DNA of 64,000 bases from assembly GCA_001189095.1 (NCBI GenBank), contig LFCK01000001.1:149251-213250 (forward strand). Reading direction: 5' to 3'. The position numbers and the translations under genes were made by a program. A model generated the notes under the pieces. That model had not been told where the DNA came from. It did not search any database and saw only the letters and a program-made list of their open reading frames with translations. The DNA is from Parcubacteria bacterium C7867-001 (GTDB lineage Bacteria; Patescibacteriota; Minisyncoccia; Phycocordibacterales; Phycocordibacteraceae). This document shows, in pieces, positions 17,527 through 61,252 of the stretch. Every line of letters starts with the position of its first letter. Position 1 is the first letter of the stretch.

Positions 17527-17528
17527 GG

Positions 17529-45131: not shown

Positions 45132-45303
45132 GCTTATGCTAAGTCAGGTGACTGACACGCATAGCTTCTCCGCCCCGTCACAGCATACCGGCTGAGAGCC
45201 GTATTCAGACAGAAAAGACCGCTCCGAAAGAGCGGTCTTTTCTGTTATCAATATTCAAAATATTAACTAGCAAAGACAGAGCAGTAGCTGGTATTATAAG
45301 GCT

Positions 45304-45876
45304 ATGTCTCTAGAACAATACTCCATTTTTCTAACTCTCGGCCTCTTTGGAATGTTTGGCTTAGTAGTCATAAGTGCTGTTCTATATTTTTTGATTCCTA
45401 AGGTGCGTAATCACATACGTTCGCACAGCTACGCAAACTTCCTTGCGGCGATCGGTCTCATATCAGTAGCATCAATCATAGGAGCTCTTACCTATCAGCT
45501 CGTGTACCTGACTCCGGTCTGCGAACTCTGCTGGTGGCAACGTATTTTCCTTTTTCCAATAGGCGTCATTGCCGCAGTGGCATTATGGTACAAGACCAGA
45601 GAAGCGCACGTTACAATCGCAATCCTCTCAGCTATAGGACTTTTCTATGCCTGCTACCATTACTACTATCATTTCCAAGGGCTGGTTCTCGGAAATACGC
45701 TCTCGCTCCCATGCTCTTTCGTGGGTCTTCTCCCTGCGTGCACTAACTCGCCGATACTCACTTTCGGCTTTGTAACGATTCCATTCATGGGCATCCTTGT
45801 ATTTTCCAGCATGCTGATATTAGCTGCCTTTGCCCATATGAAAGCTAAACGTGACGCTAAGCCAAACACGGTATAA
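45304..45876 (+). CDS. Disulfide bond formation protein DsbB/BdbC family
   Basis: Four TM helices. First Cys pair in PVCELCWWQRIF (compare BdbC PCVLCWYQR) and second pair PCSFVGLLPAC. Confidence 0.7.
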   Translation: MSLEQYSIFLTLGLFGMFGLVVISAVLYFLIPKVRNHIRSHSYANFLAAIGLISVASIIGALTYQLVYLTPVCELCWWQRIFLFPIGVIAAVALWYKTREAHVTIAILSAIGLFYACYHYYYHFQGLVLGNTLSLPCSFVGLLPACTNSPILTFGFVTIPFMGILVFSSMLILAAFAHMKAKRDAKPNTV

Positions 45877-45885
45877 TCTTTACAT

Positions 45886-46545
45886 ATGAAAATGAACTCG
45901 ACTGCATGGTGGGTTATTGGTGTGCTCGTGGTGGCAGGAGGCCTCATATTCTTATCCAATATGCTACGCACGGCGTCTACTCCTTCAACAGAAGAGGCTT
46001 CAGAGGTGCTTACGCTTGTAGCGGATGACCACAAGAAAGGGGCAGAAGACGGAAAAGTTGTCCTTGTTGAATATCTCGATTTTGAATGTGAGGCTTGTGG
46101 CGCGTACTATCCTGTTGTTAAACAGATGGAAGAGGAATTTGGGAACCGCGTGACATTCGTCGCAAGGTATTTTCCTCTTCAGGGACACAGGAACGGCATG
46201 ACTGCAGCACTTGCAGCTGAGGCAGCGGGTCGCCAGGGAAAGTTCTGGGAGATGCACGATCTTATGTATACTCGTCAGAAGGACTGGGGTGAAAAGCAGG
46301 TTTCGACTCCAGAAGTATTCGAGGAATATGCACAAGAATTGGGGCTTAACATGGAGCAGTTCAAAACAGATGTTGCGTCAGCTTCTGTAAAGGAGCGGGT
46401 AGAACGAAATCTTAACCAAGCAATTGAACTCAAACTTCAAGGAACACCCTCGTTTTTCCTTCAGGGAAAGAAAATTGCGAATCCGCAATCGCCAGAAGCA
46501 TTTAAGGCACTTATCCGGGCAGAGCTCGAGCGCGCTGGCTCATAA
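45886..46545 (+). CDS. DsbA/BdbD-like thiol:disulfide oxidoreductase (thioredoxin fold, CEAC active site), membrane-anchored
   Basis: N-terminal TM helix. VEYLDFECEACGAYYP active site. Thioredoxin-fold spacing. Confidence 0.75.
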   Translation: MKMNSTAWWVIGVLVVAGGLIFLSNMLRTASTPSTEEASEVLTLVADDHKKGAEDGKVVLVEYLDFECEACGAYYPVVKQMEEEFGNRVTFVARYFPLQGHRNGMTAALAAEAAGRQGKFWEMHDLMYTRQKDWGEKQVSTPEVFEEYAQELGLNMEQFKTDVASASVKERVERNLNQAIELKLQGTPSFFLQGKKIANPQSPEAFKALIRAELERAGS

Positions 46546-46566
46546 GTATCAGTATCAATCTTTATT

Positions 46567-47307
46567 ATGGACAAAGAAACACACATCGCCGCATCTACCG
46601 AATCTAAGCTCTCAACGCCAGTCGCCATACTTCTCGGCGCGCTCATTATCGCCGGAGCGGTACTCGTAACGAAGTACATGCCCGCGCCAAACAGCGCAAA
46701 CGTGGCGGCGCCTGGACAGCCTCAGGCTCAATCTGCAAATCTTGAAGCAGTGCGTCCGATAGGCGCGGAAGATCATATTCGTGGGAATCCCGATGCTCCT
46801 GTAAAGGTAGTCATGTATTCAGATACTGAGTGTCCATTCTGCAAGCGTTTCCATAACACCATGCAGGAACTTATGAGCACCTATGGTGCAGAAGGTAAAG
46901 TCGCATGGGTATACCGTCATTTCCCGCTTGACCAACTTCACAAAAAAGCACGCAAGGAAGCAGTCGCTAGCGAGTGCGCCGCAGAGCAAGGAGGTAACGA
47001 TGCTTTCTGGGCATACATGGATCGCATGATGGAGATAACCCCTTCTAACGATGGTCTTGACTCGGCGGAGCTTCCGAAGATAGCGGCGTTCATTGGACTT
47101 GATGTGACGAAGTTCAATGCATGTCTTTCCTCAGACAAATACGCAAAGCGCGTGCAGGACGATGCGGACAATGCGCTTAAAACAGGGGGTCAAGGAACTC
47201 CGTGGAGTATCGTTATTGGACCAAACGGGAAGAAGTACGAGCTATCAGGGGCGCAACCAATCGACGCAGTACGTCAGCTGGTTGATATTGCGCTAGCAGA
47301 TAAATAA
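46567..47307 (+). CDS. DsbA-like thiol:disulfide oxidoreductase (CPFC active site), membrane-anchored
   Basis: VVMYSDTECPFCKRFH active site. TM anchor near the N-terminus. Confidence 0.75.
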   Translation: MDKETHIAASTESKLSTPVAILLGALIIAGAVLVTKYMPAPNSANVAAPGQPQAQSANLEAVRPIGAEDHIRGNPDAPVKVVMYSDTECPFCKRFHNTMQELMSTYGAEGKVAWVYRHFPLDQLHKKARKEAVASECAAEQGGNDAFWAYMDRMMEITPSNDGLDSAELPKIAAFIGLDVTKFNACLSSDKYAKRVQDDADNALKTGGQGTPWSIVIGPNGKKYELSGAQPIDAVRQLVDIALADK

Positions 47308-47311
47308 CCGA

Positions 47312-47845
47312 ATGAAAGAGACTCTTGCTAAGGTCTTCAAAGAAACCAGAAGCAAGATTATTGCGACAGGTTCAATGTTAGTACTTTTCAGTGCCATCGC
47401 GCTTGTTCCAAATGCCGGGGTGTTGGGACAGGTGTTTGGCTCGTCAGTGCCATTTGCTCAGAAGGTAGCTTTTTCCTTTACGTTGCTTGGCTCTCCAGCA
47501 GCCAATGCAACTATGTTCGGTTTCGTTGCAATACTTGTAAGCATCTTCCTTTCGGGTGTGGTTATCGCGCTTGCAGTCTATGCCTTTAGCAAGCGTACGG
47601 AGAATGTGGGCGCGATGGGTGTATCAGGACTTGGCATGGTATCTGCGTTTATCGGCATCGGATGCGCGTCCTGCGGATCGCTCCTTCTGTCAGCTCTCAT
47701 TCCTATCTTGGGTATAGGGGCGTTTGTAAGCATCTTGCCGCTCGGCGGGCTTGAATTCAGTATTCTTGGTGTAGTCCTCTTGCTAGTATCGATCTACCTA
47801 CTTCTTATGCAGATAGCGAAACCGAGTGTGTGTGCTGTAGCATAG
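47312..47845 (+). CDS. Polytopic membrane protein with intramembrane CxxC (GIGCASCGS)
   Basis: About 5 TM helices. Directly downstream of the Dsb genes on the same strand. Confidence 0.5.
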   Translation: MKETLAKVFKETRSKIIATGSMLVLFSAIALVPNAGVLGQVFGSSVPFAQKVAFSFTLLGSPAANATMFGFVAILVSIFLSGVVIALAVYAFSKRTENVGAMGVSGLGMVSAFIGIGCASCGSLLLSALIPILGIGAFVSILPLGGLEFSILGVVLLLVSIYLLLMQIAKPSVCAVA

Positions 47846-47852
47846 ATATAGT

Positions 47853-48725
47853 ATGAGCAAGCATTCGCACGACAGCCAGGGAAACATTAAAATAGCGCTC
47901 TTTCTCAATATCTGTTTTACGATAATTGAGCTTATCGGAGGTCTTCTCACAAATAGTCTCGCCATTCTCTCGGACGCACTTCACGACTTCGGAGATACCA
48001 TCGTTCTCTCGCTTGCGTGGTATGCCGAAAAGAAATCTAAACAGGGTCCGGATGAGAAGCGCACGTATGGATATGCCCGTCTCTCGGTATTCTCCGCACT
48101 AGCGTCAGGAGCAGTCTTGATCGGCGGCTCTCTCTTTATCGTCTCACAAGCTATTCCTCGTCTCTTCAATCCTGAAGCAGTTAATGCGCCTGGAATGATG
48201 ATTCTCGCGGTGGTTGGAATCGTATTTAATGGCATCGGCGCATACCGCCTGAAGAAGGGAAAGGGCATAAGCGAACGAGTACTTTCCTGGCATCTCTTTG
48301 AAGACGTGTTCGGATGGACTGCGATACTCATCGGTGGTGGGTTGATCTATCTCTTCGATCTGCCCATCCTCGATCCGATACTCACGATTGGCTTTACGCT
48401 CTTCATTCTGTGGGGTGTGATTCGCTCAATGGGAGAAGTGAGCAATATTCTTCTTGAAGGTGTGCCAGACCGGGTGAACCTGAAAGCTCTTAAGAACGAC
48501 ATTCAGGCATTTGAAGGAGTATTGGGTCTGCATGACGTACATGTTTGGTCTCTTGAAGGGAAGACGAACGTTCTCAGTGGCCATATCGTCATCAATCCTC
48601 AAAGTGTAGATGAGGGACGAGCTATACAGCAGAAAATAAAAGTGATGCTTAAGGAAAAGCATGATATTGAGCACGCCACCATCGAACTTGAGACGAATGG
48701 AAGCTGCGAAGGAAAACCTTGTTAG
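47853..48725 (+). CDS. Cation diffusion facilitator (CzcD/ZitB-like) metal efflux transporter
   Basis: His-rich N-terminus, TM core with LSDALHDFGDTIV (CDF signature), C-terminal cytoplasmic domain. 290 aa. Confidence 0.85.
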   Translation: MSKHSHDSQGNIKIALFLNICFTIIELIGGLLTNSLAILSDALHDFGDTIVLSLAWYAEKKSKQGPDEKRTYGYARLSVFSALASGAVLIGGSLFIVSQAIPRLFNPEAVNAPGMMILAVVGIVFNGIGAYRLKKGKGISERVLSWHLFEDVFGWTAILIGGGLIYLFDLPILDPILTIGFTLFILWGVIRSMGEVSNILLEGVPDRVNLKALKNDIQAFEGVLGLHDVHVWSLEGKTNVLSGHIVINPQSVDEGRAIQQKIKVMLKEKHDIEHATIELETNGSCEGKPC

Positions 48726-48909
48726 ATACTCTTTAAAGCTCTTACCTAAGCCATATTCTAGTCCACACTTCTTCATAAAAACATCATTGACCATGGTGCT
48801 ACCCACGCTATACTAGTAGTACTGGTTAGATACGGTTGTACTCAAGAAAAGCCTATATAGGCTTTTTTGTATTATGAAGAAACGCTGAACGTCCCTTCGC
48901 TTTCCTATA

Positions 48910-50004
48910 TTGCCTTCAATCTTTTTCTCCCGTTCTAAAGCTAATGCTAAGAAGCGCGGTACATACAAAGTTTATAGTTCGGTAGCAGCGGTTTTCGCTC
49001 TATCCTTTTTTATTCATATTGTGTCGCCGCAGTCTGTAGACGGCATTTTTCCTTTTCCACATACAGCACACGCTCAATCTGACGGCGAGGGTGGCATGAT
49101 TCATGACCCAACTATTGACCTGCTCGAAGCTGCCGTAAATTTCGACCCCAATCCAAACAAGGGTGACCATGAAATGGAACTCGCTGGAGGTATAGCACTC
49201 TTGCCTCACGGAGATATTCCGGAGGGCGAAGTCGGGGCATTAGACTCGAAAGCTTCTTCACCAAACAAAACAGGTATTGCAATCTATACCGTTAAGAAAG
49301 GTGACTCGCTCTCAGAGATTGCAGAGGAGTACGGTGTGTCTACAAAAACTATTCTGTGGGCGAACGATATACGAGATGCAAGCACTATTGGTATTGGAGA
49401 CGAGCTCATTATTCTTCCAGTCACAGGTGTTCAGCATAAAGTAGTGAGAGGGGAAACACTTCAATCTATCGCCAAGAAGTACGGTTCGGATGTAACTGAT
49501 ATTGCGCTCTACAACGGCATTAGCGAAAGCAAGGGTCTTATCGCAGGTTCCGAGATCATTGTCCCGGGCGGCGCATTCCCATCAGCTTCTCCAAAGAGTG
49601 TGGCAAGCACCGGTTCATCTAAGAAAAGTACTGCTTCAGCAAAGTCTTCAAGTACCTCTTCCTCATCAGGCAAGTTTGGGAACCCTCTCCCTGGTGGAGC
49701 TATCACGCAGGCAAATCATGGGTACAACGCCGTAGATATAGATGGTGAAACAGGAGACCCTATTTACGCTTCGGCAGGTGGTACGGTCCTTGTTGCTAAA
49801 GGAAGTGGCTGGAATGGTGGATACGGGAATTACGTAGTTATTGAACATGGAGGGGGAGCACAGACGCTCTATGCACACATGTCGAATGTTGCTGCGTCTG
49901 GCTCAGTATCTAAGGGTGATGTTATTGGGTACGTAGGAAATACAGGCAAGTCCACTGGGTCTCATCTTCACTTCGAGGTGCGAGGAGCAAGTAATCCTTT
50001 ATAA
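48910..50004 (+). CDS. LysM-domain M23 metalloendopeptidase
   Basis: Two LysM repeats (YTVKKGDSLSEIAEEYGVS...; HKVVRGETLQSIAKKYGSD...). M23 core GYNAVDIDGETGDPIYASAGGTV...HMSNVAASG...GNTGKSTGSHLHFEV. Confidence 0.8.
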   Translation: MPSIFFSRSKANAKKRGTYKVYSSVAAVFALSFFIHIVSPQSVDGIFPFPHTAHAQSDGEGGMIHDPTIDLLEAAVNFDPNPNKGDHEMELAGGIALLPHGDIPEGEVGALDSKASSPNKTGIAIYTVKKGDSLSEIAEEYGVSTKTILWANDIRDASTIGIGDELIILPVTGVQHKVVRGETLQSIAKKYGSDVTDIALYNGISESKGLIAGSEIIVPGGAFPSASPKSVASTGSSKKSTASAKSSSTSSSSGKFGNPLPGGAITQANHGYNAVDIDGETGDPIYASAGGTVLVAKGSGWNGGYGNYVVIEHGGGAQTLYAHMSNVAASGSVSKGDVIGYVGNTGKSTGSHLHFEVRGASNPL

Positions 50005-50030
50005 GCTTGATTTCAATCGGTATTTTTCTG

Positions 50031-51359
50031 TTATGCGACCGTTATTTTTTTATCTTTCAGAAATAGTTTGGTCTTGAGACATGAGAGCATCTCTCGCTTC
50101 TCGAATATCGTTCCTTCTTTCAGCAGGTACTTTGCGTAGTTCCTGATATCCACGTCTGGTGTTTGAACATCCTTCTTGTGTCCCAGCACACCCACTCTAA
50201 ATTTGTTGAATCGTGCTAGTTCTTGCTCTATCCGCGAGTGCATTCCTAGCTCATCCAGACTCAGTGTGTCCATAAGCTCCACCAGCCCGTCTATAAGTAG
50301 AGTCTCGTTGATATAGGGATTCTGGCATTCATCCCTACCTATCTTGCTACAGAAGTAGTACACATGCCGATTCACCCCTCCATCTTTAAGCTTCTTAAAC
50401 TTCTCGTCAGCAGTAATTCCTGAGGTGCAGTACCCGCATCGAATCAGCTTCGTGAAGGCGAACTCTTTACTCTCGGTTTTCGGTACGTACTTCTGGTCTA
50501 AGGCAACCTGCACCTTGTCGAACAGTTCTTTATCAATGACTGGGCTATGTCGTCCCGTGTACCAGTTACCACTCCCGACAGGGTACTCAAACTCCCCATA
50601 GTAGTACGGGTTCCGTAATATGAGGTAGATGTTTGCGAGCACGAGCGGTTTTCCGCGGTGCGTTTTGAATCCAGTATCCTCGAGCCATCGGTGTAGCTTT
50701 CTTCCGCTCCATTGTTCGTGCGCGACTTTCTCATACATCTGCCGAATCACATGTCCTCGCTTCGGATCTATTCTCGACTGGCATTTCTTATCAACATTCT
50801 TCTCATTCAAATAACCCGTGGGTGCGACTCCTGGTCGAAGTCCCATCTCACACCTCGTGCGAAGTCCACGTTTTACGTTCACCGCCTTGTTGTCATTCTC
50901 GAGCTTTGCCTGACTTCCTAGAATCATCAATAGAAACTTCTCATTCGGATTATTGGTGAATCGCTGTCCGTAGGTGCGTATTTCTACCAACTTCCCCTGA
51001 TCCATCAAATCCACCACCGACCCTAAGTCCCCAGCATTACGCGCCAGACGGTCGGGTGCCCACGTCAGGATGCCGTTGTACTTACCCTCACGAAGCTCGG
51101 CGAGCATTTCGTTGTATATCGGTCTTTGTCCAACCTCCTTAGAGGAGTGCGATTCTCGCTTGGTCTCTATTATGGTCAGTCCATCCCGCTCAGCTAAATT
51201 CAACATCTCCTTAACTTGCGATTCTATTGATAATGCCTGCTTATCCTCGGCTTCCGTCGATTTCCTCGCGTAGAGGCAGTATTTGATGGCTACTGCCTCT
51301 ATAAGAGGGACAGGTCTCGAAACCCCTTGTTTACGCTCACTTATTGCTATTTGTGTCAT
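50031..51359 (-). CDS. Large serine recombinase (resolvase-domain plus recombinase/zinc-ribbon domains)
   Basis: Catalytic AIKYCLYARKSTEAEDKQALSIESQ (Y-A-R-x-S-T serine motif), a later recombinase domain and a Cys cluster (CGYCTS...C). Start placed at MTQIAIS. The ORF track extends to 51518 but would overlap the divergent gene. Confidence 0.8.
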   Translation of the reverse strand: MTQIAISERKQGVSRPVPLIEAVAIKYCLYARKSTEAEDKQALSIESQVKEMLNLAERDGLTIIETKRESHSSKEVGQRPIYNEMLAELREGKYNGILTWAPDRLARNAGDLGSVVDLMDQGKLVEIRTYGQRFTNNPNEKFLLMILGSQAKLENDNKAVNVKRGLRTRCEMGLRPGVAPTGYLNEKNVDKKCQSRIDPKRGHVIRQMYEKVAHEQWSGRKLHRWLEDTGFKTHRGKPLVLANIYLILRNPYYYGEFEYPVGSGNWYTGRHSPVIDKELFDKVQVALDQKYVPKTESKEFAFTKLIRCGYCTSGITADEKFKKLKDGGVNRHVYYFCSKIGRDECQNPYINETLLIDGLVELMDTLSLDELGMHSRIEQELARFNKFRVGVLGHKKDVQTPDVDIRNYAKYLLKEGTIFEKREMLSCLKTKLFLKDKKITVA

Positions 51360-51516
51360 ACAACCACATTGATGACGCCGAACCCCATACGAGTCTAGAG
51401 CGGCTAAGACGCGTTGGAGTTGGCAGAGTCTGCCAGAGATTACTCTTTGTGTAGGCTGTAAATCAGGAGTAAAATGAAGCAAATGAGGCAAGCAAAAGTA
51501 AACGTATTTATTACAC

Positions 51517-52125: not shown

Positions 52126-55064
52126 AACAGCTTCAATTACATCGCAAAATAGATGAGTTTTTGAAAGCAGGAATTGCAACCGCGTCTGTTGATGTTGCGC
52201 AAGGGTTTATTCATGGTAACGAAGACTCAAAGCGGTATTTCTTTGCACAGGCAAATGAGTCTTGGCTAAGATGGTTCTTCGATAATGGTCTCTTTGAGGA
52301 ACTTAAGAAAAAAGCCGAAGATCCGACTAAGTACGGATACCGTCTTTCAGAACTTGAGTATCTAACAAGAATGGCGGATAAAGAGCCTCAGACTGTAGTG
52401 GATATTATTCTTTCCATCTCTATCACCAAGGACACCTTCAATCCTGAGGTAATAGATAGATTTTTCTGGATTACAGGACTACTGCCAATCACTCAAATAA
52501 AACAGATTCTACCAAAGATTCTCTCTGAAAATTGGTTGTTGCTGATGTCACCATTTAGTAAGTCTGGATACGAGTATCAGAAGATGGTCGAGAAGCTAAG
52601 TGAAGCTAAGGATTATGACGCTCTCCTTATTCTCACTCAAATCATTCTCACCGTTCGTGCAAAAGAAGAGTTCGCTGACTCGGAACGCTTTTTCATATCG
52701 GATAAATTGTTCTACCTTGGCGATATCAACGCTACGGGTATATTTGATGTAATCACAAATACTGAGAATCCAAAGAAAGAGGAGTTTTTGAAGGTTACCC
52801 TAGACACCCTCGCGATAGTTGTTGATTTGGGTAAAGAAAGAGAAGAGACTGTCTTTGATAAAACGGAACCGTTTTATTTACTCGATGTCGATATATTTGC
52901 TCTTGAACTTGATACGGGTAAGCGGTCTCATCTAAGAGAAGACATTCAAAATCTTGTTGCAACAGCTAAAGTTCTTGTTCGCTCTACAATCGGCTCTCTC
53001 TGTGAGAACGAGTTAGAAACAAGGCGAATATACGATACATATATTGCGACCCTGCCAGATAGTCTTACTTGCTGGAGATTGAAGCTCTACTCGATTACTC
53101 GTTGCCCCGAGGTCTTTAAAGTTGAAATCAAAGAGGCGTTATTCCGCGCATTCAATGTGGGAGAAAGATATTTTGAAATCGATGGAGGTGCCGAGTACCA
53201 TAGAGGTCTCATTGCTGGTTTTGGTGCACTTGATGATGCGACAAAAAGAGAGTATGTCAGCAAAGTCATTGAATATTACGGCGCTACTTTAGACGATAAG
53301 GATCGAGAGGGGTGGAGAAAGAGAGATGGTCTAGAGATATTAGGCTATATCAAAACTTATCTAACTCCAGAAGAATTCACAATCTCTGAACCAATCTTGG
53401 GAGTTATACCTACGGGTGAGGTTGTTGTACCACATCCGTCAGTCGGAAAAGTCACTAGTGGAATGGTACTCCACAAATCACCGTTTAACCCAGCAGATAT
53501 TACAATCGACGAACTCATTAATCACCTTAAAACTGACTCAACACCGAAAGCACTTAATGAGCAGTACAAGAATGACGATTTCCTCAGCCCGCGCGGAGCT
53601 GAGGGACTTAGTGATGCAATAAAAGAAGATTTTAAAATACGAAGAGTTGAGTATTTGAGCAATCTCAATAAGTTCTTTGACCGTGATGCAATTGACCCCG
53701 TGTATGTTTATGGACTTCTTCGTCAGGTAGAAGACATGCTTCGAGCAAAAGAAGCATTTAGTACTACTGAATATCTTCAGTTAATAAGCTTCTTTACTCT
53801 CATCGAACAATCTGGAACAGAGGTCGAATTTGAGCCAGCAGAGGAAAGACCTTACTGGGCTGACTGGATAACTGTGCACAAATCTATGGCAGATGTGTTA
53901 CTTGAGATTCTTGCACTAATGAAAGATTCCCAGACATTCAAAGATAATAGAGCACAAATATTCTCCTTGGTTAAATATCTTCTTTCCATCAAGAGTAGCC
54001 CTGATGCAGAGGACGATAAACGAGAATCAAATGAGCCAGCTCATGTAGCCATCAATTCCGTGCGTGGCCAGGCGTATAGAGCGTTCGTACAATTCACCTA
54101 TAACGAAGGAAATAAAACATTGTCGGAGGACGTAAAGACTCTCTACGAGCATGTGTTGGCTACTGATAGCTCAAACGCAGTCAGGTTTACGATAGGTCAA
54201 TTTTTGGCATCATTCTATTTCCGCGACATCCCGTTTATTACAAGTCTATTTCCAAAGCTATTCCCGAAAGCAGAAGCCGGTAAAGAAAAGGCTTACTTCG
54301 CGACATGGGAAGGGTATCTCGCGAGCTCGCTATACAAAGAGCTTTTTGAAGCACTTAGGGAATATTACGAATATGCAATAAACATCGATCCAGAGACGTA
54401 CCCTGATCGGAAATACCTCAAAGGATTAGATGAAACTCTTGCTGTCCATATCGCACTTGCGTACGCGCACTTCGATTTCAACATAGGTGATCCTTTGTTT
54501 GATCTATTCTGGAATACTGCTAATGAGACCCGTCATTACGAGTTCGTGTCATTTGTTGGGCGAACTTGTATCACTCGAAGTCAGGCTGGCGATGCTTGGT
54601 TTGCTGAAAATAATGTAAGCAAAGAAAAGCTCATTGAGTTCTGGAATTGGATTATTGCTACAGATATTCCGATTGAATCAAAAGCGTTTTCGGGCTTTGG
54701 GTTCTGGATAAATCCTGACAAGGAAATCATTGATGAGAAGATACTCATCCAAAACCTTTCAACTACTCTTGAAAAATCCGAGGGTGAGGTTGATTGGGAT
54801 TACGGTCTAACCCGTAGAATAAAAGTATTTGCTGAAATTGATCCAGAAAATACGCTCGAAATAATTCGACACTTCTTGTTGCAGGGTAACGAACTGAATT
54901 CGCATAGACGAGCACCTTTATTCAGTATTGATACTGAAATCAAAGAAGCTCTCGAGATTATCTATACGAACGAGCGACTAAAACAGGGTGTCGAAGACCT
55001 CATCAATCTTCTCATTGAAAGGGGTAGTAGTGTCTTCTGGGGGCTCAAAGACATCCTCAAATAG
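52122..55064 (+). CDS. Large hypothetical protein (980 aa, predicted alpha-helical, no recognisable catalytic motif)
   Basis: Single uninterrupted ORF. No Walker, HEPN, PD-(D/E)xK or zinc-finger motifs visible by eye. Weak hairpin (agggc ttcgcaa gccct) after the stop. Confidence 0.6.
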   Translation: MKQLQLHRKIDEFLKAGIATASVDVAQGFIHGNEDSKRYFFAQANESWLRWFFDNGLFEELKKKAEDPTKYGYRLSELEYLTRMADKEPQTVVDIILSISITKDTFNPEVIDRFFWITGLLPITQIKQILPKILSENWLLLMSPFSKSGYEYQKMVEKLSEAKDYDALLILTQIILTVRAKEEFADSERFFISDKLFYLGDINATGIFDVITNTENPKKEEFLKVTLDTLAIVVDLGKEREETVFDKTEPFYLLDVDIFALELDTGKRSHLREDIQNLVATAKVLVRSTIGSLCENELETRRIYDTYIATLPDSLTCWRLKLYSITRCPEVFKVEIKEALFRAFNVGERYFEIDGGAEYHRGLIAGFGALDDATKREYVSKVIEYYGATLDDKDREGWRKRDGLEILGYIKTYLTPEEFTISEPILGVIPTGEVVVPHPSVGKVTSGMVLHKSPFNPADITIDELINHLKTDSTPKALNEQYKNDDFLSPRGAEGLSDAIKEDFKIRRVEYLSNLNKFFDRDAIDPVYVYGLLRQVEDMLRAKEAFSTTEYLQLISFFTLIEQSGTEVEFEPAEERPYWADWITVHKSMADVLLEILALMKDSQTFKDNRAQIFSLVKYLLSIKSSPDAEDDKRESNEPAHVAINSVRGQAYRAFVQFTYNEGNKTLSEDVKTLYEHVLATDSSNAVRFTIGQFLASFYFRDIPFITSLFPKLFPKAEAGKEKAYFATWEGYLASSLYKELFEALREYYEYAINIDPETYPDRKYLKGLDETLAVHIALAYAHFDFNIGDPLFDLFWNTANETRHYEFVSFVGRTCITRSQAGDAWFAENNVSKEKLIEFWNWIIATDIPIESKAFSGFGFWINPDKEIIDEKILIQNLSTTLEKSEGEVDWDYGLTRRIKVFAEIDPENTLEIIRHFLLQGNELNSHRRAPLFSIDTEIKEALEIIYTNERLKQGVEDLINLLIERGSSVFWGLKDILK

Positions 55065-55378
55065 AGCTGTTGGTAAGAGGGCTTCGCAAGGCCCTATATC
55101 TAAGCTAAGGTTCTAAAAGGTAGCGCAATTTGCTATCATAGTCCTTGTACAACAAAGACCTAACCTCTAGAAAACGCTTAGTTTCCTAGAGCATGGTCGG
55201 AATAACAAAACCGCTACAGTATAGAAGGCTCCTCGTCAGAGTCACTGTAGCGGTCGTGTACTCGAAAGGGTATATGGGTTAGGCCGAAAGGTCTGATCGC
55301 AATGGCGGGGAGCCTTCTGTCCCACGACTCTAGGCTCCCTGCTACTTATTAGCAGAAGCTAAAACCGCTACAGTGCAT

Positions 55379-56302
55379 ATGAATAAAAGTATACAAATAG
55401 GCGTATTCGCCTTAGGGATATTTATATTCCAAGCAACCAACGTTCACGCAACTGACTATAACTACCTGCCTCCCGATGTTCTCATCAAACAGCAGGAAGC
55501 GCAGTCAGCTCTTGAGTACCGACTGCAAAAACTAGAAGCATCCGTTTCGAGCGATTCGTCTGCATCTATTGCGAGCCTCAAGTCTCGTATATCCCAACTC
55601 GAATCAGAGCGCACAACGGAGAAAAACTATATCTCAGGAGTGTATGCTCAGAGTGGTATTGCCAATCAGCTCGAAGCTAAGTTAGCTGAGATTGATGCGA
55701 AATACGACTCCCATATAAGTAGCCTGAAGTCACAGTTATCGAAACTCGAGAGTTCAAGTTCAAGCCAGTCAAACAACGAGTCAGAGATCCAGTCCCTAAA
55801 GCTCCAGATTGCCCAGCTCAAGGATAAGATCGCCACTCAAGAACTTCAGGTCAGTGAACAGGCGCTCGAAAAGTATCAAACAAAATACGAGTACTCAGAT
55901 GCAGAAGTGTACGAGGTCTTTACCTATATAGATGCACTTGCTCTCCAAGACTCATCCAAGCTGTTCCAGCGCATCAAAGTCAATAATCCAGAAGTAGCGT
56001 CTCGGGTTGTCGCTTTCTACAACCAGAAGTACCCACACGGGAAGCCGGGCACTGCAATTAACGATGAGTACCTCGCTTCGCTTCCAAAGACAACGGCTCC
56101 CACGCCTACAAAAACTCAGGCTGGAGTAGCACCAACTGTTGTACCGAAAGAGGTAGCAACTACCGCGAAGGATTCTGTCCCAGCAGAATGGCAGATCCCT
56201 CCCACTCCTGAACCAGTCATCACTCCACCAGTAGAACCAAAGCCAACGTTCATTCAGAAAGTAATGAGCTTCTTTAGTCGATGGTTTTTCGGAGGAAAGT
56301 AG
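55379..56302 (+). CDS. Secreted coiled-coil protein with Pro/Thr-rich C-terminal region
   Basis: Signal peptide MNKSIQIGVFALGIFIFQATNVHA. Heptad-like Ser/Leu/Gln repeats. PTPTKTQAGVAPTVVPKE...PPTPEPVITPPVEPKP tail. Confidence 0.6.
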   Translation: MNKSIQIGVFALGIFIFQATNVHATDYNYLPPDVLIKQQEAQSALEYRLQKLEASVSSDSSASIASLKSRISQLESERTTEKNYISGVYAQSGIANQLEAKLAEIDAKYDSHISSLKSQLSKLESSSSSQSNNESEIQSLKLQIAQLKDKIATQELQVSEQALEKYQTKYEYSDAEVYEVFTYIDALALQDSSKLFQRIKVNNPEVASRVVAFYNQKYPHGKPGTAINDEYLASLPKTTAPTPTKTQAGVAPTVVPKEVATTAKDSVPAEWQIPPTPEPVITPPVEPKPTFIQKVMSFFSRWFFGGK

Positions 56303-56642
56303 TAGTTGTCCACAGCCCATCTTGGGACTAGGTTTTAAATTTCCCTTAAAACATAAAGGATTTTTACAAGGGCTTTCTAATGTTCAAAGTTAGAGACCAG
56401 TGTCTGTATCATTTTTGTGATAGCGTTAGCTCTAGAAGCACCAATCACATCAGACCTGATTCTGTGAGCCTAAGCCACTCGCACAATTAAATAAGCCAAT
56501 AAGTAAATCGTGACTTTCTCTACTTGTAGAGAAAGGTATTTCGATTTCTTTGCGGTTCGTCGAAAACCCACCAGAGAGTCGAAGTTAAACTTCGGAAATC
56601 TGGTGGATTTTTGCTTCTAATTACTTAGCTAATTAGAAAGAC

Positions 56643-57971
56643 ATGAACAAGGAAAACTTGAAGATCGAGTACGTAGCCATTGATCAGTTGAATGTGAACA
56701 CGCAGAATCCCCGTAAGTGGAGTGAAGAGCAGAAGAAACAACTCAAGGAGAGTATCAAGCGGTTCGGAAATGTTGATCCGATAATCGTAAATACCCACGA
56801 AGAGCGGAAGAACATTGTCGTAGGAGGACACTTCAGGCTAGAAGCGTGCAAGGAGCTTGGGTACAAGAATATGCCCGTGGTATTCGTGAACCTCACGCCT
56901 AAAAAGGAAGAGGAGCTCAACCTGCGCCTTAACCGCAACCAAGGAGAATTCAATCTTGAGATGCTCGCTAAATTCGACAGCGCAATGCTCCTTGATATCG
57001 GGTTCGACTCGGAAGACATCGATGAGATATTCCCGTCAGTAAAGCACGACCAAGAATTCAATCTTCAGGACGAACTCGACAAGCTCGATATCACGGTCGA
57101 AGCAAAGAAGGGTGAAGTGTATGACCTCGATGGCTCGCGCCTCATGATTGGCGACTCAACCATCGAAGCAGACATGCTGAAACTGATGGGAGATAACCGG
57201 GCGGATATGGTGCTAACAGATCCTCCCTATATCTTGGACTACCTCAAAGGCAAAGGTCGAGGAAAGGATGGTGCAACAGTGGGTTTCGGTTCCAAGAAGA
57301 ATCGTAGGTACCTTGAGACTGATATTCTACCAGACAACTTCAGCGAGTTGTGGATGGCAAATGTCGCCAAGGTCCAGAAGCCTGACTTCTCAATTATCAT
57401 CTTCGAGAACCCAAAGAACCTGCGAACTATTTGGAACGCACTTGAAGCGCACTGGAAGTACCGTAATACGATAACGTGGCATGTGCCCAATCGTATGCAA
57501 GGATTCTCAGCCGCGAATAAGTTCTTCAATAAGACGGACATTGCGCTCGTAGGAGCGAAAGGTGATGTTGCGCTCAACCTAGAACCAGAAGAAGAGCCGT
57601 TCCAGAACGAGTATGAGAACGCGATCTTCGCCACTTCAGGAAAGGCGCACTTCGAGCCGTATGAGAAAGGAAAGAAGATATGCCCGACTGACTTCATCTC
57701 GCACCCAGCGGCAGATAAGAAGTCGTCAGGTCAGGAGATTATCTTCGGCACTAAGCCCATTGAACTCCTCGTTCCGTATCTCAAGGTACTCACCAAGCGA
57801 AATGACCTCATCCTTGAACCGTTCGGTGGAAGCGGGAGCACCCTCATCGCCGCAGTGAAGATGGGTCGCCGGTGCTTCGTCATGGAGAAATCCCACGTCT
57901 ATGCGGAAGTGATTATGAACCGCTGGGAAAAAGAGACAGGCAAGAAGCGTAAGAAAGTCGTAACAGTATGA
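56643..57971 (+). CDS. ParB-like nuclease domain fused to a DNA methyltransferase (N6-adenine / N4-cytosine type)
   Basis: N-terminal ParB-N-like region (YVAIDQLNVNTQNPRKWSEEQ...VGGHFRLEA). Catalytic DPPY motif (VLTDPPYILDY). C-terminal SAM-binding FGGSGST. Confidence 0.8.
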   Translation: MNKENLKIEYVAIDQLNVNTQNPRKWSEEQKKQLKESIKRFGNVDPIIVNTHEERKNIVVGGHFRLEACKELGYKNMPVVFVNLTPKKEEELNLRLNRNQGEFNLEMLAKFDSAMLLDIGFDSEDIDEIFPSVKHDQEFNLQDELDKLDITVEAKKGEVYDLDGSRLMIGDSTIEADMLKLMGDNRADMVLTDPPYILDYLKGKGRGKDGATVGFGSKKNRRYLETDILPDNFSELWMANVAKVQKPDFSIIIFENPKNLRTIWNALEAHWKYRNTITWHVPNRMQGFSAANKFFNKTDIALVGAKGDVALNLEPEEEPFQNEYENAIFATSGKAHFEPYEKGKKICPTDFISHPAADKKSSGQEIIFGTKPIELLVPYLKVLTKRNDLILEPFGGSGSTLIAAVKMGRRCFVMEKSHVYAEVIMNRWEKETGKKRKKVVTV

Positions 57972-58354
57972 CGATAAAGGAACGAACGAAGAAGGATAAA
58001 GCACGCGTACTGGAACACTTGAAAGCGATACCGATTATAGAGGTAGCGTGCAAGAAGGCGAACATTGCTCGCGCCACCTACTACCGCTGGCGTACTGAAG
58101 ACCCTGACTTCCTTAGGGACTCAGAAGACGCACTCGAAGAAGGTATCGCGCTCATTAATGATATGACCGAATCCCAGCTCATCGGTCTCATTAAGGAGAA
58201 GAAGTTCCAAGCGGTGCAATTCTGGCTTCGGCATAACCACCAGCGGTTCCTGCTCAAGGAGAAGGAACACTCGCTGTTGAAGCCCCGAAAGGATGTTGCA
58301 CTCTCACGAGACCAAGAGAAGTCACTCAAGAAAGCATTGGCTATGTACGCATAG
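57968..58354 (+). CDS. HTH protein, terminase-small-subunit-like
   Basis: ATGA overlap with the methyltransferase gene. ACKKANIARATYYRWR helix-turn-helix typical of phage terminase small subunits or transposase HTH domains. Confidence 0.5.
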   Translation: MTIKERTKKDKARVLEHLKAIPIIEVACKKANIARATYYRWRTEDPDFLRDSEDALEEGIALINDMTESQLIGLIKEKKFQAVQFWLRHNHQRFLLKEKEHSLLKPRKDVALSRDQEKSLKKALAMYA

Positions 58355-58375
58355 CTCTCTTTCAGAAGAACGCAT

Positions 58376-59434
58376 ATGAAAAAAGAAACCATACTCCAAA
58401 CCATCATCACTGACAGTGCCGTCAGACGAAGACTCGTGAAAGAATCACACGAGGCGTTTTGTAGTATCTATCTTTCGCACCACATCATGCACCCGTATGC
58501 GTTCTTCCATAAAGAGATGTTCCGCATGACTGAACGAGAAGACGAAAAGCTCTCTGTCGTTATGGCATTCCGTGGCTCAGGCAAATCAACGATTCTGAAC
58601 CTCTCCAATACCATCTGGTCTATCCTCGGTAAGCACCAGAAGAAGTTTGTGCTTATCGTGAGTAAATCAAAGCTTCAGTCTCAGGCGCACTTCCTCAACA
58701 TTAAGTCAGAGCTTGAAGACAACGAGCTACTCAAGCAAGACCTTGGTCCATTTCGGGCGAGTACCACGGAGTGGGGCGCATTCTCTATCGAGCTTCCACT
58801 CTATGGCGCGAAGATAATGTGTATCGGCTCGCTTCAGAATATCCGTGGACTGAAATACAAAAGCCAGCGCCCAGACCTAATCATCTGTGACGATATGGAA
58901 GATACACTCTCCGTGCAGGATGGTGAGACCAGATGGAATCTGTATGAATGGTTCTTGAATGAAGTGATGCCCATCGGAGACGAGAAGACACGAATCCTTG
59001 TGCTGGGAAATCTCGTTGGTAGAGTGTCCCTTATGATCCGACTCAAGAAGCTGATGATGCACGATAAATTGCAAGGCACGTACTACGCGTATCCGCTTCT
59101 TGATAACCACAACCGCATACTCTGGCCTCAACGGTATTCGATAGCCGAAGTGGAGAAACTACGTGATGCGCTCACTGATAAGGACGCACACAGAATGTAC
59201 CGACTCTTTGACCGAGACTATAAACTCAACATGTCCTGCGTACGAGATCCGCTTACCCCTATTCCATACGTATCTCATCCCGTCACCAATACCTCCACCA
59301 AGAAAGAAGACTTCCGCATAACCGCACCGCTCTGGGCGGTGGGCAATCGTGTCTTTGAGGACATGGAAAACATTGATGACCTCGACGGTTGGGACGAGGA
59401 GACGGTAGTGCCGAATGTGGGGCAGGAGTACTAA
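58376..59434 (+). CDS. P-loop ATPase, phage terminase large-subunit-like (apparently short or truncated)
   Basis: Walker A AFRGSGKST and Walker B-like DLIICDD about 100 aa later. 352 aa. No obvious nuclease domain. Confidence 0.5.
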   Translation: MKKETILQTIITDSAVRRRLVKESHEAFCSIYLSHHIMHPYAFFHKEMFRMTEREDEKLSVVMAFRGSGKSTILNLSNTIWSILGKHQKKFVLIVSKSKLQSQAHFLNIKSELEDNELLKQDLGPFRASTTEWGAFSIELPLYGAKIMCIGSLQNIRGLKYKSQRPDLIICDDMEDTLSVQDGETRWNLYEWFLNEVMPIGDEKTRILVLGNLVGRVSLMIRLKKLMMHDKLQGTYYAYPLLDNHNRILWPQRYSIAEVEKLRDALTDKDAHRMYRLFDRDYKLNMSCVRDPLTPIPYVSHPVTNTSTKKEDFRITAPLWAVGNRVFEDMENIDDLDGWDEETVVPNVGQEY

Positions 59435-59457
59435 TCATTGTCTGATAAAATACAGCA

Positions 59458-60195
59458 ATGGATTTTATCGTTATAGGGCTAGTAGCTTTCACTGCTTCCG
59501 CACTCACATTCTTTTCTGGTTTTGGATTAGGAACACTTCTCTTACCTGCATTCGCGATTTTCTTTTCAGCACCAATCGCTCTTACTGCAACTGGTATTGT
59601 TCACCTCCTGAACAATCTTTTTAAGGGAACGCTAGTACGAAAGAATGTTGATTGGCGCACGGTACTTCGCTTTGGACTACCTGCTGTCCCAGCTGCAATC
59701 TTGGGTGCATACCTGCTCACGTATTTAGATACTCGCATCGCAAGCATAGTCATTGGCGTGATACTTATTGCTTTTGCGGTCTTAGAATTCCAGCCGTGGT
59801 TTCAGCGACTGACATTCCCAAAGAAATATCTTTCGCTTGGTGGCGTAGCCACAGGATTTCTCGGTGGACTCTCGGGACAGCAGGGAGCACTACGTTCTAT
59901 GTTCCTACTGAAGTCAGATTTTGAAGCAGTGAAATACATTGCTACCGGAGTCTTCATTGCGATACTCATAGACCTTGCTCGGCTCCCAACTTATTTGCTC
60001 GGTCTAAAGAACGTTGCGTCTATAACCCAGCACGAGATTGCCCTTATCGAGTTTGGAACATTCTGTGCGTTTATCGGTGCATGGCTCGGAGCGAAGTACG
60101 TTAAGAAGACCACTATTGGTTTCATTCGATACATTGTTGCAGGACTAATGCTCTGTGTAGGTACCGCCCTTATCGTCGGACTGATCGGAGGTTAG
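59458..60195 (+). CDS. TauE/SafE (DUF81) family anion exporter membrane protein
   Basis: Two-fold repeated 4-TM architecture with Gly-rich motifs (FFSGFGLG ...GFLGGLSG). 245 aa. Confidence 0.7.
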   Translation: MDFIVIGLVAFTASALTFFSGFGLGTLLLPAFAIFFSAPIALTATGIVHLLNNLFKGTLVRKNVDWRTVLRFGLPAVPAAILGAYLLTYLDTRIASIVIGVILIAFAVLEFQPWFQRLTFPKKYLSLGGVATGFLGGLSGQQGALRSMFLLKSDFEAVKYIATGVFIAILIDLARLPTYLLGLKNVASITQHEIALIEFGTFCAFIGAWLGAKYVKKTTIGFIRYIVAGLMLCVGTALIVGLIGG

Positions 60196-60220
60196 GAACG
60201 GTACTTGTCTCGTATCTTCT

Positions 60221-60838
60221 TCATTTTCTCCTTATGTTTTTTAAGTCTTCCAGCATCTCTGCTTTTAACTTTCGTGACCACGCTTCAGCACGTTTCTTGT
60301 TATGCCTGTCGTACGATTTCCGACTTGCTGAGTATCGCTCAATTAGGGCAGGATTCTCTTTCTTCAAGAACAGGTACTCATAGGGAGTACCTGTTTCGTT
60401 CAAAATGATTCGAGGATGTAGCGTGCCCTCCTTTATATATTTCTTCGCAGTCTGATGTTTGATATCAAACCTGTATTTCAGACTCGACATTGAGAAGTAG
60501 CTATTTCGATGCAGGAAAATGTAGGTTGGTATCATTCCGTCTTTCACTGCCTTTCGGCAAAGAAGACAAGTCTGTCCGTACCAGTCATACCACCCGTTCG
60601 TCTCATCAATCCTGTTGCTACACACAAGACAGGTATATGTCCCGTCTACAGGGAAGCCGTCTGGTTCAGTCTTCAATCGCTTCTTTTTGATCGAGTCTTT
60701 CTTCGACATTTCCCATAAGAGGTCGAAGAAACCTACTAAATTCTGCGCACCCTCACGTGCGTCTTCGTCACTCATCTCCTCACCTTTCTTTCTAGATTCT
60801 TCCTTTAGTTGCTCTATAAGTTCATCGGATACTGCCAT
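60221..60838 (-). CDS. Hypothetical protein with CxxC...CxxC zinc-ribbon (205 aa)
   Basis: YTCLVCSNRIDETNGWYDWYGQTCLLCRKA. Lys-rich C-terminus. AT-rich. Confidence 0.45.
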   Translation of the reverse strand: MAVSDELIEQLKEESRKKGEEMSDEDAREGAQNLVGFFDLLWEMSKKDSIKKKRLKTEPDGFPVDGTYTCLVCSNRIDETNGWYDWYGQTCLLCRKAVKDGMIPTYIFLHRNSYFSMSSLKYRFDIKHQTAKKYIKEGTLHPRIILNETGTPYEYLFLKKENPALIERYSASRKSYDRHNKKRAEAWSRKLKAEMLEDLKNIRRK

Positions 60839-61075
60839 AGGTATCGTTGATTGGCTTGTAAGTGAGACACCGACTGATATCTCCCTTACAGTGTCTCATT
60901 TGTCTTTTTTCGTTAGAATACCCTTATTGTGCCTACGGGAGAGTAGACTGAGACGCATGGAAACGAGACAGTTTAATTCGCTCAGAAACCCTTACGGGGT
61001 CTCACTCGGGTAGGTTCGAGACTGAGTCAGTCAGCAAAATAAGCGCAGCATATTTTGCTGTGGAGAAGAACACGG

Positions 61076-61252
61076 AGTGATCGTCTAGGGATCGAACGCC
61101 GGAGCGATGTTTTGTCAGCAGACAAAACCGCGAGGCGGTGCCTAGTCCGAGCCGAGTGTCGACGAGGTGAGAGACGAAGGAGATATGGCGTATTCGCCGG
61201 CCCTAGTCTCCCAGCTTTTTTCGGAAACCGCCGATAGGGTGCCTTTGAAGCC
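61076..61252. pseudogene. Scrambled partial tRNA-Gln copies (candidate att-site remnants)
   Basis: 21-nt match to the tRNA-Gln anticodon-to-variable region (61232-61252). 15-nt match to its 3' end (61201-61215). 5'-like gtgatcgtctag and inverted T-loop ggatcgaac at 61080-61103. Confidence 0.55.
61110..61174 (+). repeat. Copy B of the ~65-nt conserved element (see 16911-16975)
   Basis: gttttgtcagcagacaaaaccgcgaggcgg...gagtgtcgacgag. Embedded between the tRNA-Gln fragments. Confidence 0.6.

Follow-up and report, generated by a model that had tools for sequence, protein, structure and literature searches.

The 64,000-nucleotide stretch of the Parcubacteria bacterium C7867-001 genome analyzed here (contig LFCK01000001.1, positions 149,251–213,250 of the forward strand; hereafter the window) contains, at positions 45130–61035, what is very likely one integrative genomic island of 15.9 kb, inserted at the extreme 3' end of a tRNA-Gln gene. 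The island carries a large serine recombinase gene, and we are fairly confident that it belongs to a family of large-serine-recombinase elements that is common in Parcubacteria/Paceibacteria and combines two cargo slots with a phage-derived core kept by selection. Loci compared with the window are given by their L numbers.

Boundaries of the island and its empty target site

The following features define the ends of the island:

45058–45131, plus strand: tRNA-Gln(UUG) (ARAGORN and Rfam)
up to 45129, plus strand: B half of the left attachment site (attL), the tRNA-Gln 3' end ...TCTCCCAGC (tRNA calls, synteny in about 20 relatives)
45130–45165, plus strand: P' arm CAGCTTATGCTAAGTCAGGTGACTGACACGCATAGC (same arm after tRNA-Gln in L295 and L297; contiguous P|P' in L296)
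61013–61035, plus strand: P arm of the right attachment site (attR), GGTTCGAGACTGAGTCAGTCAGC (also at the element end in L290/L291; two copies in L296)
61036–61215, plus strand: host DNA with the B' half-site and a tRNA-trailing structured RNA (colinear with the sequence after tRNA-Gln in L007)

GC content falls directly at the tRNA-Gln 3' end, where a first-pass annotation, made from the sequence alone, had placed the start of a low-GC island. The fraction is 0.457 in the island (45130–61035), compared with 0.543 in positions 1–45129 and 0.526 in 61036–64000. Windowed composition is not uniform, and every 15.9-kb stretch of the left flank has a GC fraction of at least 0.533. The compositional contrast is real, but it is smaller than the proposed switch from 57% to 40%: the step at tRNA-Gln is from ~54% to ~46%, and the minimum near 40% is restricted to 51.5–55 kb. 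The left junction lies at 45129/45130 and the right one at 61035/61036, about 220 nt before the end near 61.26 kb that had been suggested.

The closest species-level genomes belong to Paceibacteria/Patescibacteria, with DnaX proteins 59–72% identical to that of the window. The gene order Dus-DnaX-(M10 peptidase)-tRNA-Gln is kept in about 20 relatives, and none of these carries island genes downstream of the tRNA. In L007, the tRNA-Gln gene runs straight into a homologue of window positions 61036–61215, that is, into an unoccupied target site; once 45130–61035 is taken out, the window and L007 are colinear over the tRNA and the 185 nt that follow it. This places the inserted DNA between the junctions 45129/45130 and 61035/61036. 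Together with the conserved attachment arms described below, the empty site in relatives bears out the earlier proposal of an acquired integrative element at tRNA-Gln.

The sequence downstream of tRNA-Gln differs in every relative. In comparison with L020, common genes restart only near the window-equivalent position 66.6 kb, so that the variable sequence continues beyond the island. In L013 (11501–12973), L019 (12398–13384), and L022 (11641–12060), a recombinase of a different serine recombinase clade directly follows tRNA-Gln; these proteins are ~36% identical to the recombinase of the window and equally close to a second recombinase found in L141. At least two recombinase lineages thus share tRNA-Gln as an insertion hotspot.

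Several other observations concern this locus. In L020, tRNA-Gln is directly followed by a metallo-beta-lactamase-fold gene, a holin gene, and DUF87. Window positions 61036–64000 and the sequence beyond (L003 11579–17146) hold ~5.5 kb of lineage-specific genes of host-like GC content (HAD, VanY, MliC, and others). A conserved sequence of ~40 nt (ACTCGTGCTAGGTTATCGCGCTCGAGACGCGTCGATAA-like) stands directly after tRNA-Gln in L006, L009, L010, L014, L017, L020, and L027. Upstream of the intact tRNA-Gln of L007, positions 11889–12002 contain copies of tRNA positions 1–20 and 16–40 with 69 nt between them, which looks like the broken 5' half of a second tRNA-Gln gene.

Attachment sites and the serine recombinase

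The recombinase gene of the island is located as follows:

50031–51359, minus strand: large serine recombinase, 442 aa (Pfam, PHROG, YARKST catalytic motif)

The protein comprises Resolvase, Recombinase, and Zn-ribbon domains (PF00239, PF07508, PF13408) and matches the integrase family phrog_95 (E = 7e-60). Its homologues form more than 120 protein clusters, 72–79% identical and every one from Parcubacteria.

The two junctions read TCTCCCAGC|CAGCTTATGCTAAGTCAGGTGACTGA for B|P' and GGTTCGAGACTGAGTCAGTCAGC|AAAATAAGC for P|B', or, in extended form, ...CCCTAGTCTCCCAGC|CAGCTTATGCTAAGTCAGGTGACTGACACGCATAGC on the left and ...GGTTCGAGACTGAGTCAGTCAGC|AAAATAAGCGCAGC on the right. The encoded CCA of tRNA-Gln is completed by the island, which contributes the CA. 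The P arm, placed exactly at the right junction, agrees with the tRNA 3' end in 16 of 23 positions. No long direct repeat of the kind that the first-pass annotation proposed to look for was found: attL and attR share CAGC only. Serine integrases rely on a short core of identity and leave no long repeat. The window has a single copy each of P and P', and we therefore treat the island as one element. The predicted attP is GGTTCGAGACTGAGTCAGTCAGC+CAGCTTATGCTAAGTCAGGTGACTGAC and the predicted attB is CCCTAGTCTCCCAGC+AAAATAAGCGCAGCATATTTTGC.

We inspected the genomic context of three close recombinase homologues (L295, L296, and L297). In L295, DnaX and tRNA-Gln(UUG) are followed by GTCTTATGCTAAGTCAGGTGACTGAGATGCATAC and then by the recombinase gene on the opposite strand, with DnaX on the other side of the tRNA as in the window. 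In L297, tRNA-Gln(CUG) is followed by AGCCCTATGCTAAGTCAAATGACTGAGACGCATAG, by the same small hairpin as in the left arm of the island, and by the recombinase gene. Both recombinases are 77–78% identical to that of the window and have the same orientation. L296 carries the two arms joined as a contiguous P|P' (GGTTCACAACTGGGTCAGTCAGC|CATCACATGCTAAGTCAGGTGACT) and a second P arm joined to AAAAATTATAAG, and both junctions flank a 78% identical recombinase. Finally, in L290/L291, a module with a terminase 86% identical to the short terminase of the island (see below) ends with the P arm GGTTCGAGACTGACTCAGTCAGC. At the level of sequence comparison, these contexts define the attachment arms of the recombinase family and link the family to tRNA-Gln. 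They point to an intact large serine recombinase that would target this tRNA; the island's own enzyme would then have catalyzed the insertion, and the island may still be able to excise.

Two of the loci used in this comparison carry further elements. In L141, positions 11608–17900 hold a second element with its own serine recombinase, a rolling-circle Rep (REP_ORF2-G2P), and a helix-turn-helix (HTH) protein; it ends with the same hairpin-terminator as the left arm of the window island. L296 (6914–13440) contains a 6.5-kb version of the recombinase element with a reverse transcriptase and an HNH protein. One side of this element is the contiguous P|P', next to a ParB-methyltransferase, a TerS-like protein, and a 606-aa open reading frame (ORF) at the TerL position. 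This arrangement may represent several elements in tandem.

A conserved phage-derived module with a LOOT RNA

The right part of the island consists of the following features:

55157–55298, plus strand: LOOT RNA (Rfam RF03000; 50.4 bits, gathering score 46.4)
55379–56302, plus strand: 307-aa protein with an N-terminal hydrophobic segment and a coiled coil (weak coiled-coil matches)
56643–57971, plus strand: fusion of ParB_N and an N6/N4 DNA methyltransferase (Pfam, PHROG)
57968–58354, plus strand: HTH protein of 128 aa resembling the small terminase subunit (TerS-like; PF13022, phrog_4044)
58376–59434, plus strand: short large terminase subunit (TerL), 352 aa (phrog_38; ATPase region of the T7 terminase)
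59458–60195, plus strand: TauE/SafE-family exporter (Pfam)
60221–60838, minus strand: 205-aa conserved protein with CxxC pairs (75% identical in L087)
60847–61012, plus strand: conserved non-coding right end with a GTGAGACAC...GTGTCTCATTTGTC hairpin (also written GTGAGACAC/GTGTCTCA) and GAGAC/GTCTC repeats

LOOT RNA, the ParB-methyltransferase, the TerS-like protein, and the short TerL co-occur in six distinct related elements, and LOOT alone is present in a seventh. The order and lengths of the genes are the same in L087/L292, L141, L145, and L294, while L290 is a variant without the ParB-methyltransferase. The ParB-methyltransferase is 79–86% identical in L087, L141, and L145, with a proportion of nonsynonymous differences (pN) of 0.08–0.13 and a saturated proportion of synonymous differences (pS). 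The TerS-like protein measures 128 aa in all relatives and is 70–83% identical, and the short TerL is 72–82% identical (pN 0.12–0.18, pS 0.66–0.92). Taken together, the module proteins of the window differ from those of L141, L087, and L145 with pN values of 0.08–0.18 and pS values of 0.65–0.99 (at or near saturation), a pattern that holds across genomes of 34% and 54% GC. The module is therefore under purifying selection; as judged from these sequences, it appears to be phage-derived but selectively maintained and no relic.

The LOOT RNA had been missed in the first-pass annotation and was found by the Rfam search. In six other distinct elements, it scores 52–83 bits at the same position, so that the island copy, which passes the gathering score, has higher-scoring counterparts in related elements. 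In addition to window positions 55157–55298, it is located as follows:

L087: 3336–3475
L141: 6746–6879
L145: 7197–7318
L290: 5499–5632
L294: 6783–6901
L297: 3493–3608

In six of the seven distinct elements, the genes for the ParB-methyltransferase, the TerS-like protein, and the short TerL have LOOT just upstream of them. This RNA is present in every element with a short TerL that we inspected (L086/L087, L141, L145, L290, and L294) and in the recombinase element of L297; it was not found in L295, L296, or L298. No DNA pattern was specific enough to find LOOT in sequence collections, its sequence being too variable. For this RNA, the literature offered a mention of covariation and the 2017 discovery paper, with no description of its function or genomic context in the text covered.

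The short TerL retains Walker A (GSGKST) and Walker B (DLIICDDMED) motifs and has an unrelated tail of ~60 aa in place of the nuclease domain. Its best match among solved structures is the ATPase region of the T7 terminase. Compared with the T7 gp19-type and Parcubacteria Terminase_6C terminases, the N-terminal ATPase domain aligns and the nuclease domain is missing: the protein aligns only to the ATPase half of homologues of 478–506 aa with Terminase_6C (PF17289). The closest TerL homologues (more than 30 clusters) are likewise nuclease-less, with 335–361 aa, whereas the distant ones (47–50% identity) have 478–520 aa and Terminase_6C. Lacking the RNase-H-like nuclease, the short TerL would therefore be unable to cut concatemers by the usual mechanism. 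The assignment of the TerS-like protein is weak, at 28.6 bits for PF13022 with a cut-off of 27.9 and E = 6e-7 for the terminase small subunit phrog_4044.

The remaining parts of this region are conserved to different degrees. In L141, the place of the 307-aa protein is taken by one with 42% identity to it. Homologues of the 205-aa protein with 214 aa occupy the same position in L290, L291, and L292, so that this gene is present in some copies of the element. The TauE gene is an insertion specific to the window copy, because L087 and L290 have no such gene between those for TerL and the 205-aa protein. The non-coding right end has a 64-nt stretch in common with L087/L292 (91% identity) and one of 46 nt with L141 (89%), and a similar sequence stands before the P arm of L296. 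The repeats in this end are possible accessory or packaging sites.

Defense-system models gave only generic methyltransferase matches for the module proteins. IMG/VR holds two related contigs, and the same element also occurs within a 93-kb chromosomal contig among restriction–modification (R-M) genes.

Two variable cargo slots

The left part of the island contains these features:

45184–45246, plus strand: small hairpin and intrinsic terminator of the left arm (inverted repeat 45209–45245)
45304–50004, plus strand: cargo slot B (Pfam, gene calls), with the next five lines
45304–45876, plus strand: DsbB-like protein
45886–46545 and 46567–47307, plus strand: two DsbA-like proteins
47312–47845, plus strand: 177-aa membrane protein with a CxxC motif (CASC)
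47853–48725, plus strand: cation diffusion facilitator (CDF) exporter
49096–50004, plus strand: LysM-M23 peptidase
51517–55064, plus strand: cargo slot A, overlapping ORFs of 202 and 980 aa (lowest GC of the island, 0.404)

The Pfam and PHROG searches agree with the gene calls of the first-pass annotation throughout (DsbB, two DsbA, CDF, LysM-M23, recombinase, ParB-methyltransferase, TerS, TerL, and TauE). They also agree with the stated lack of capsid, portal, and tail genes and of a tyrosine integrase, for which no match was obtained among the island ORFs of at least 120 aa.

The left-arm hairpin is conserved in L141/L142 (28 nt, 89% identical), and a similar sequence stands behind the P' arm of L297. 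In L295 and L297, slot B has no content, and the recombinase gene lies within ~80–120 nt of tRNA-Gln. Because the recombinase adjoins the tRNA in these loci, the Dsb, CDF, and LysM-M23 genes (4.8 kb) fill a cargo slot, in agreement with their earlier description as cargo.

The 202-aa and 980-aa ORFs of slot A appear to be a split form of a Parcubacteria family of ~1150–1190 aa, whose homologues have either 976–985 or 1147–1188 aa. Members of the family are frequent in Parcubacteria, Peribacteria, and Taylorbacteria and contain no Pfam domain; for the 980-aa protein, no relatives were found in IMG/VR. In the C-terminal half, the protein is similar to the region of the defense-associated sirtuin Dsr1 outside SIR2 (PADLOC E = 4e-17, profile positions 735–1047 of 1227). 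We rejected an identification as Dsr1, since the protein has no SIR2 domain and no Pfam match and shares the C-terminal region alone. In relatives, slot A holds type I R-M systems or AAA_15/21 ATPases, and the variable block beside the module is defense-like.

L298 carries a homologue of the 202-aa and 980-aa gene pair. Between this homologue and a tRNA-Glu gene (4020–4290), it has three tandem repeats of ~60–70 nt, each with part of the 3' end of the adjacent tRNA-Glu, which makes them a repeat array of a different kind derived from a tRNA end.

Origin of the island and comparison with known systems

In its recombinase domains, its attachment half-sites, and its unoccupied target site, the island corresponds to a large-serine-recombinase integrative element. 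Resolvase, Recombinase, and Zn-ribbon domains are common to the recombinases of SCCmec/CcrAB, Tn5397/TndX, and phiC31-, Bxb1-, and A118-type integration, as are short asymmetric attachment sites with few identical crossover bases and no long direct repeats. The likeness to SCCmec extends to a recombinase inside the island, cargo on both sides, and a target at the 3' end of a conserved housekeeping gene. Unlike in SCCmec-type islands, the target is a tRNA gene whose 3' end is rebuilt by the element, the host belongs to the Candidate Phyla Radiation (CPR), and the core is a terminase-derived module with a LOOT RNA rather than resistance genes. As far as we know, it is mostly tyrosine integrases that insert at tRNA genes, and serine integrases seldom do so. 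With tRNA islands and prophages of tyrosine integrases, the element shares insertion at a tRNA 3' end that is kept intact, compositional contrast, and a re-used hotspot; it differs from them in having no tyrosine integrase, no perfect direct repeat of 15–50 nt, and a core of ~4 nt. This class was rejected, as there is no Phage_integrase match and the copy at attR matches at 16/23 positions. A literature search on tRNA-targeting serine integrases and CPR integrative elements gave nothing directly relevant.

Four other origins were weighed. The one that survives best, possible but rather less probable than not, is a phage satellite comparable to P4-like elements, phage-inducible chromosomal islands (PICI), and PICI-like elements (PLE). 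Here, the TerS-like protein and the nuclease-less TerL would redirect the packaging of a helper, the GAGAC right end would be pac-like, and the variable slot would be anti-phage. A small integrase-bearing island (~11–16 kb) with a weakly matched TerS-like gene and no virion genes fits this description, as do the defense-type slot of the relatives (type I R-M, AAA_15/21 ATPases, Dsr1-like protein) and the conserved non-coding right end with its repeated motifs. The ATPase-only TerL would suit a packaging hijack, and the full-length TerL relatives in the same phylum could be those of helpers. However, no helper is known, genes for capsid-size or late-gene control were not recognized, and a replication or primase gene was not found. 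The island thus differs from P4-like elements, PICI, and PLE in its ATPase-only TerL and structured RNA and in having no recognizable replication, capsid-redirection, or helper-sensing genes. The satellites known to us (PICI, P4, PLE) carry TerS or capsid-remodeling genes and not an ATPase-only TerL, which also speaks against this origin.

The first-pass annotation favored a degraded prophage, in which a temperate tailed phage at tRNA-Gln lost its structural and lysis genes and the terminase, TerS, and ParB-methyltransferase genes are drifting. This origin has become improbable, even though the TerS-like and TerL-like matches and the phage-typical ParB-methyltransferase suggest it, two related contigs are filed in IMG/VR, and the phylum contains full-length TerL homologues with Terminase_6C (478–520 aa, 47–50% identical). 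In L296, moreover, the ParB-methyltransferase, the TerS-like protein, and the 606-aa ORF at the TerL position stand beside a recombinase of the same type. Drift is difficult to reconcile with a module conserved in six elements, in which synonymous sites are saturated at an amino-acid change of 8–18% and ORF order and lengths persist across genomes of 34% and 54% GC, or with a short TerL that keeps 335–361 aa in more than 30 nuclease-less clusters. No capsid, portal, or tail gene was recognized next to the module in the related loci inspected, and the attachment arms have no IMG/VR match. The class of tailed-phage prophages was rejected on the lack of capsid, portal, and tail genes and of a TerL nuclease domain.

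Two tandem insertions, with the Dsb/CDF/LysM-M23 block (45.1–50.0 kb) landing between the tRNA and an older element (50.0–61.0 kb), would explain why the recombinase directly follows the P' arm in L295 and L297 and the 4.8-kb block appears as an addition; the tRNA-Gln hotspot also receives other recombinase types (L013, L019, and L022). We nonetheless regard this origin as no more probable than the decayed prophage. The P' arm and hairpin-terminator lie to the left of the Dsb block, by the tRNA and not by the recombinase gene, and no second P, P', or tRNA-like junction is present within the island. Only 26 nt separate the LysM-M23 gene from the recombinase stop codon, and the Dsb block has the GC fraction of the recombinase gene (0.475). 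A non-mobile, fast-evolving native region, with low GC from its gene content and a coincidental tRNA, would accommodate the different content after tRNA-Gln in every relative and the late return of synteny with L020 (~66.6 kb), but it is hardly credible given exact junctions with conserved arms in unrelated genomes, module proteins 72–86% identical in genomes with far more diverged DnaX or 34% GC, and a recombinase 72–79% identical across many lineages where the best DnaX match is 72%; the attachment-arm comparisons refute it in practice.

Several findings weigh against our preferred reading of the island as a tRNA-Gln-specific serine-recombinase element with a selected core. The recombinase gene lies 4.9 kb from attL, compared with ~80–120 nt from the tRNA in L295 and L297. 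No candidate recombination directionality factor was found among the small ORFs by Pfam and PHROG (a group too diverse for these searches to exclude one), and neither the attachment arms nor an attP-like junction has a match in IMG/VR. L141 and L292 combine the module with an orthologous recombinase (54–64% identity) and have no tRNA within their 10-kb flanks, and in L141 a second, unrelated recombinase element is inserted at the right end; the element is therefore variable in its architecture, and the module may move independently of the recombinase. Among the contigs with exact protein matches, no strain without the island was present, all three samples carrying it, and no excised circle or empty-site reads were found. 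Lastly, the function of the module is a matter of inference only.

Under the preferred reading, the recombinase would pair the element site P|P' (...GGTTCGAGACTGAGTCAGTCAGC|CAGCTTATGCTAAGTCAGGTGACTGA...) with the host site B|B' (...CCCTAGTCTCCCAGC|AAAATAAGCGCAGC...) and exchange strands inside the shared CAGC. The tRNA would remain intact, with the island supplying the CA of CCA, and no long direct repeat would arise. The slot between the left arm and the recombinase 3' end would take up the Dsb/CDF/LysM-M23 envelope block, and the slot between the recombinase promoter and the LOOT RNA would take up the split Dsr1-like protein or, in relatives, R-M systems and ABC/OLD-type ATPases. The core would comprise LOOT, the coiled-coil protein, the ParB-methyltransferase, the TerS-like protein, the nuclease-less TerL, the 205-aa protein, and the GAGAC-repeat right end. 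We infer that the module serves the element's own DNA handling or transfer, either through recognition of DNA and its translocation into the capsids of a helper phage or through interference with phage packaging.

As far as we are aware, few mobile elements have been characterized in CPR bacteria, a huge and uncultured group. The island offers exact junctions, a predicted attP and attB, and an intact recombinase in such a bacterium. Recombinase identities of 72–79% across Parcubacteria, above those of DnaX, point to recent spread. We know of no genetic tools for these organisms at present; a serine integrase with a 40–50-bp target in tRNA-Gln is directly testable and could become one. LOOT, an RNA of unknown function, gains a reproducible genomic setting, and a nuclease-less terminase ATPase under selection is revealed. 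As the Dsb/CDF/M23 cargo shows, reduced genomes of this kind can gain envelope-folding and metal-export traits by horizontal transfer.

A tRNA-trailing RNA motif to the right of the island

Three pieces of tRNA-Gln lie to the right of the island:

61085–61097, inverted: 13-nt copy of the tRNA-Gln T arm (exact match)
61201–61215, plus strand: direct 15-nt copy of the tRNA-Gln 3' end (exact match)
61241–61262, plus strand: direct 22-nt copy of the tRNA-Gln anticodon arm (exact match, outside the island)

The first-pass annotation had taken these pieces for attachment scars at the right end. They are exact matches, but attR is formed by the P arm at 61013–61035, and the 13-nt and 15-nt copies lie in a trailer RNA outside the island. 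The 15-nt and 22-nt copies were rejected as attachment repeats, since homology with L007 begins at 61036 and the 15-nt copy is inside the trailer.

The trailer core consists of GAACGCCGGAGC, a hairpin with a CAGCAG loop, and then GCGAGGCGGUGCC..., and it also occurs twice after tRNA-Leu(CAA) in L020. A 25-base pattern retrieved at least 120 metagenome copies among the matches listed. A same-strand tRNA stands upstream in 104 of 128 units, ending 25–100 nt away and in a few cases up to 375 nt, and the tRNAs ahead of trailer units span 37 anticodons. Neighboring genes are housekeeping genes; no recurrent recombinase, reverse transcriptase, or transposase genes were found near the units. About three-quarters of 96 non-redundant units contain two perfect copies from the tRNA that they follow, one in sense (the last ~20 nt) and one in antisense (positions −22 to −12). 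These copies would form an acceptor/T-stem-like helix that closes the structure. Compensatory changes occur at 20 of 30 predicted base pairs, and a strand test gave 86 G-U against 58 A-C.

No Rfam match was obtained at permissive thresholds for the window and five clean copies. A covariance model built from 31 metagenomic copies (R1) matches window positions 61086–61197 (93.3 bits, E = 3e-21), so that the 13-mer and 15-mer are two arms of a trailer unit. In actinobacterial control loci, R1 gave noise matches only (E 0.5–0.9). Judging from the alignment with L007, the unit is native to the empty site and would have stood ~58 nt after tRNA-Gln before the arrival of the island. The motif is seemingly undescribed. 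A short pattern for it gave 23 matches in IMG/VR, which we rejected because all lack the hairpin and their number equals the chance expectation for 18 specified bases. For the detection of islands, these results imply that tRNA-like fragments beside a tRNA are not always attachment scars; most of those found here belong to a separate, widespread RNA motif.

We tentatively link two readings, which together we hold to be somewhat less probable than not: the trailer RNA as a new class, and LOOT as an RNA cofactor of the module. The trailer would be an RNA of ~120–160 nt that follows CPR tRNA genes, whatever their isotype, at a distance of 25–100 nt and mimics an acceptor/T-stem minihelix. If so, it could be either a mobile element that copies the 3' end of its target or a tRNA-like device for processing or priming. 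LOOT and the module could likewise form a working RNA–protein machine with which tRNA-Gln-targeting serine-recombinase elements hijack DNA packaging or interfere with phages.

The 22-nt copy lies just beyond the trailer motif, between the unit and a terminator at 61275–61307, and its origin is left without explanation; copies of the 5' part (two-thirds) of the tRNA are rare near trailer units (6/96). An independent assembly of the same organism (Logan SRR2043728_5185, L002) has a contig that ends inside tRNA-Gln at window position ~45085, which coincides with the start of the 22-nt tRNA repeat. This is probably a repeat-induced assembly break, although it could reflect heterogeneity at the tRNA-Gln site.

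The tRNA group I intron described for Patescibacteria in a preprint is a different feature, located at anticodon position 35/36. A gene of the CCA-adding enzyme/poly(A) polymerase family adjoins a trailer unit in six loci (in L278, for example, the ORF begins 104 nt after it), which may be due to chance. Within the window, R1 also detects a second, degenerate copy of the trailer at 16892–17007 (45.9 bits), which begins 34 nt downstream of tRNA-Lys(CUU) and extends into tRNA-Leu(UAG) on the opposite strand.

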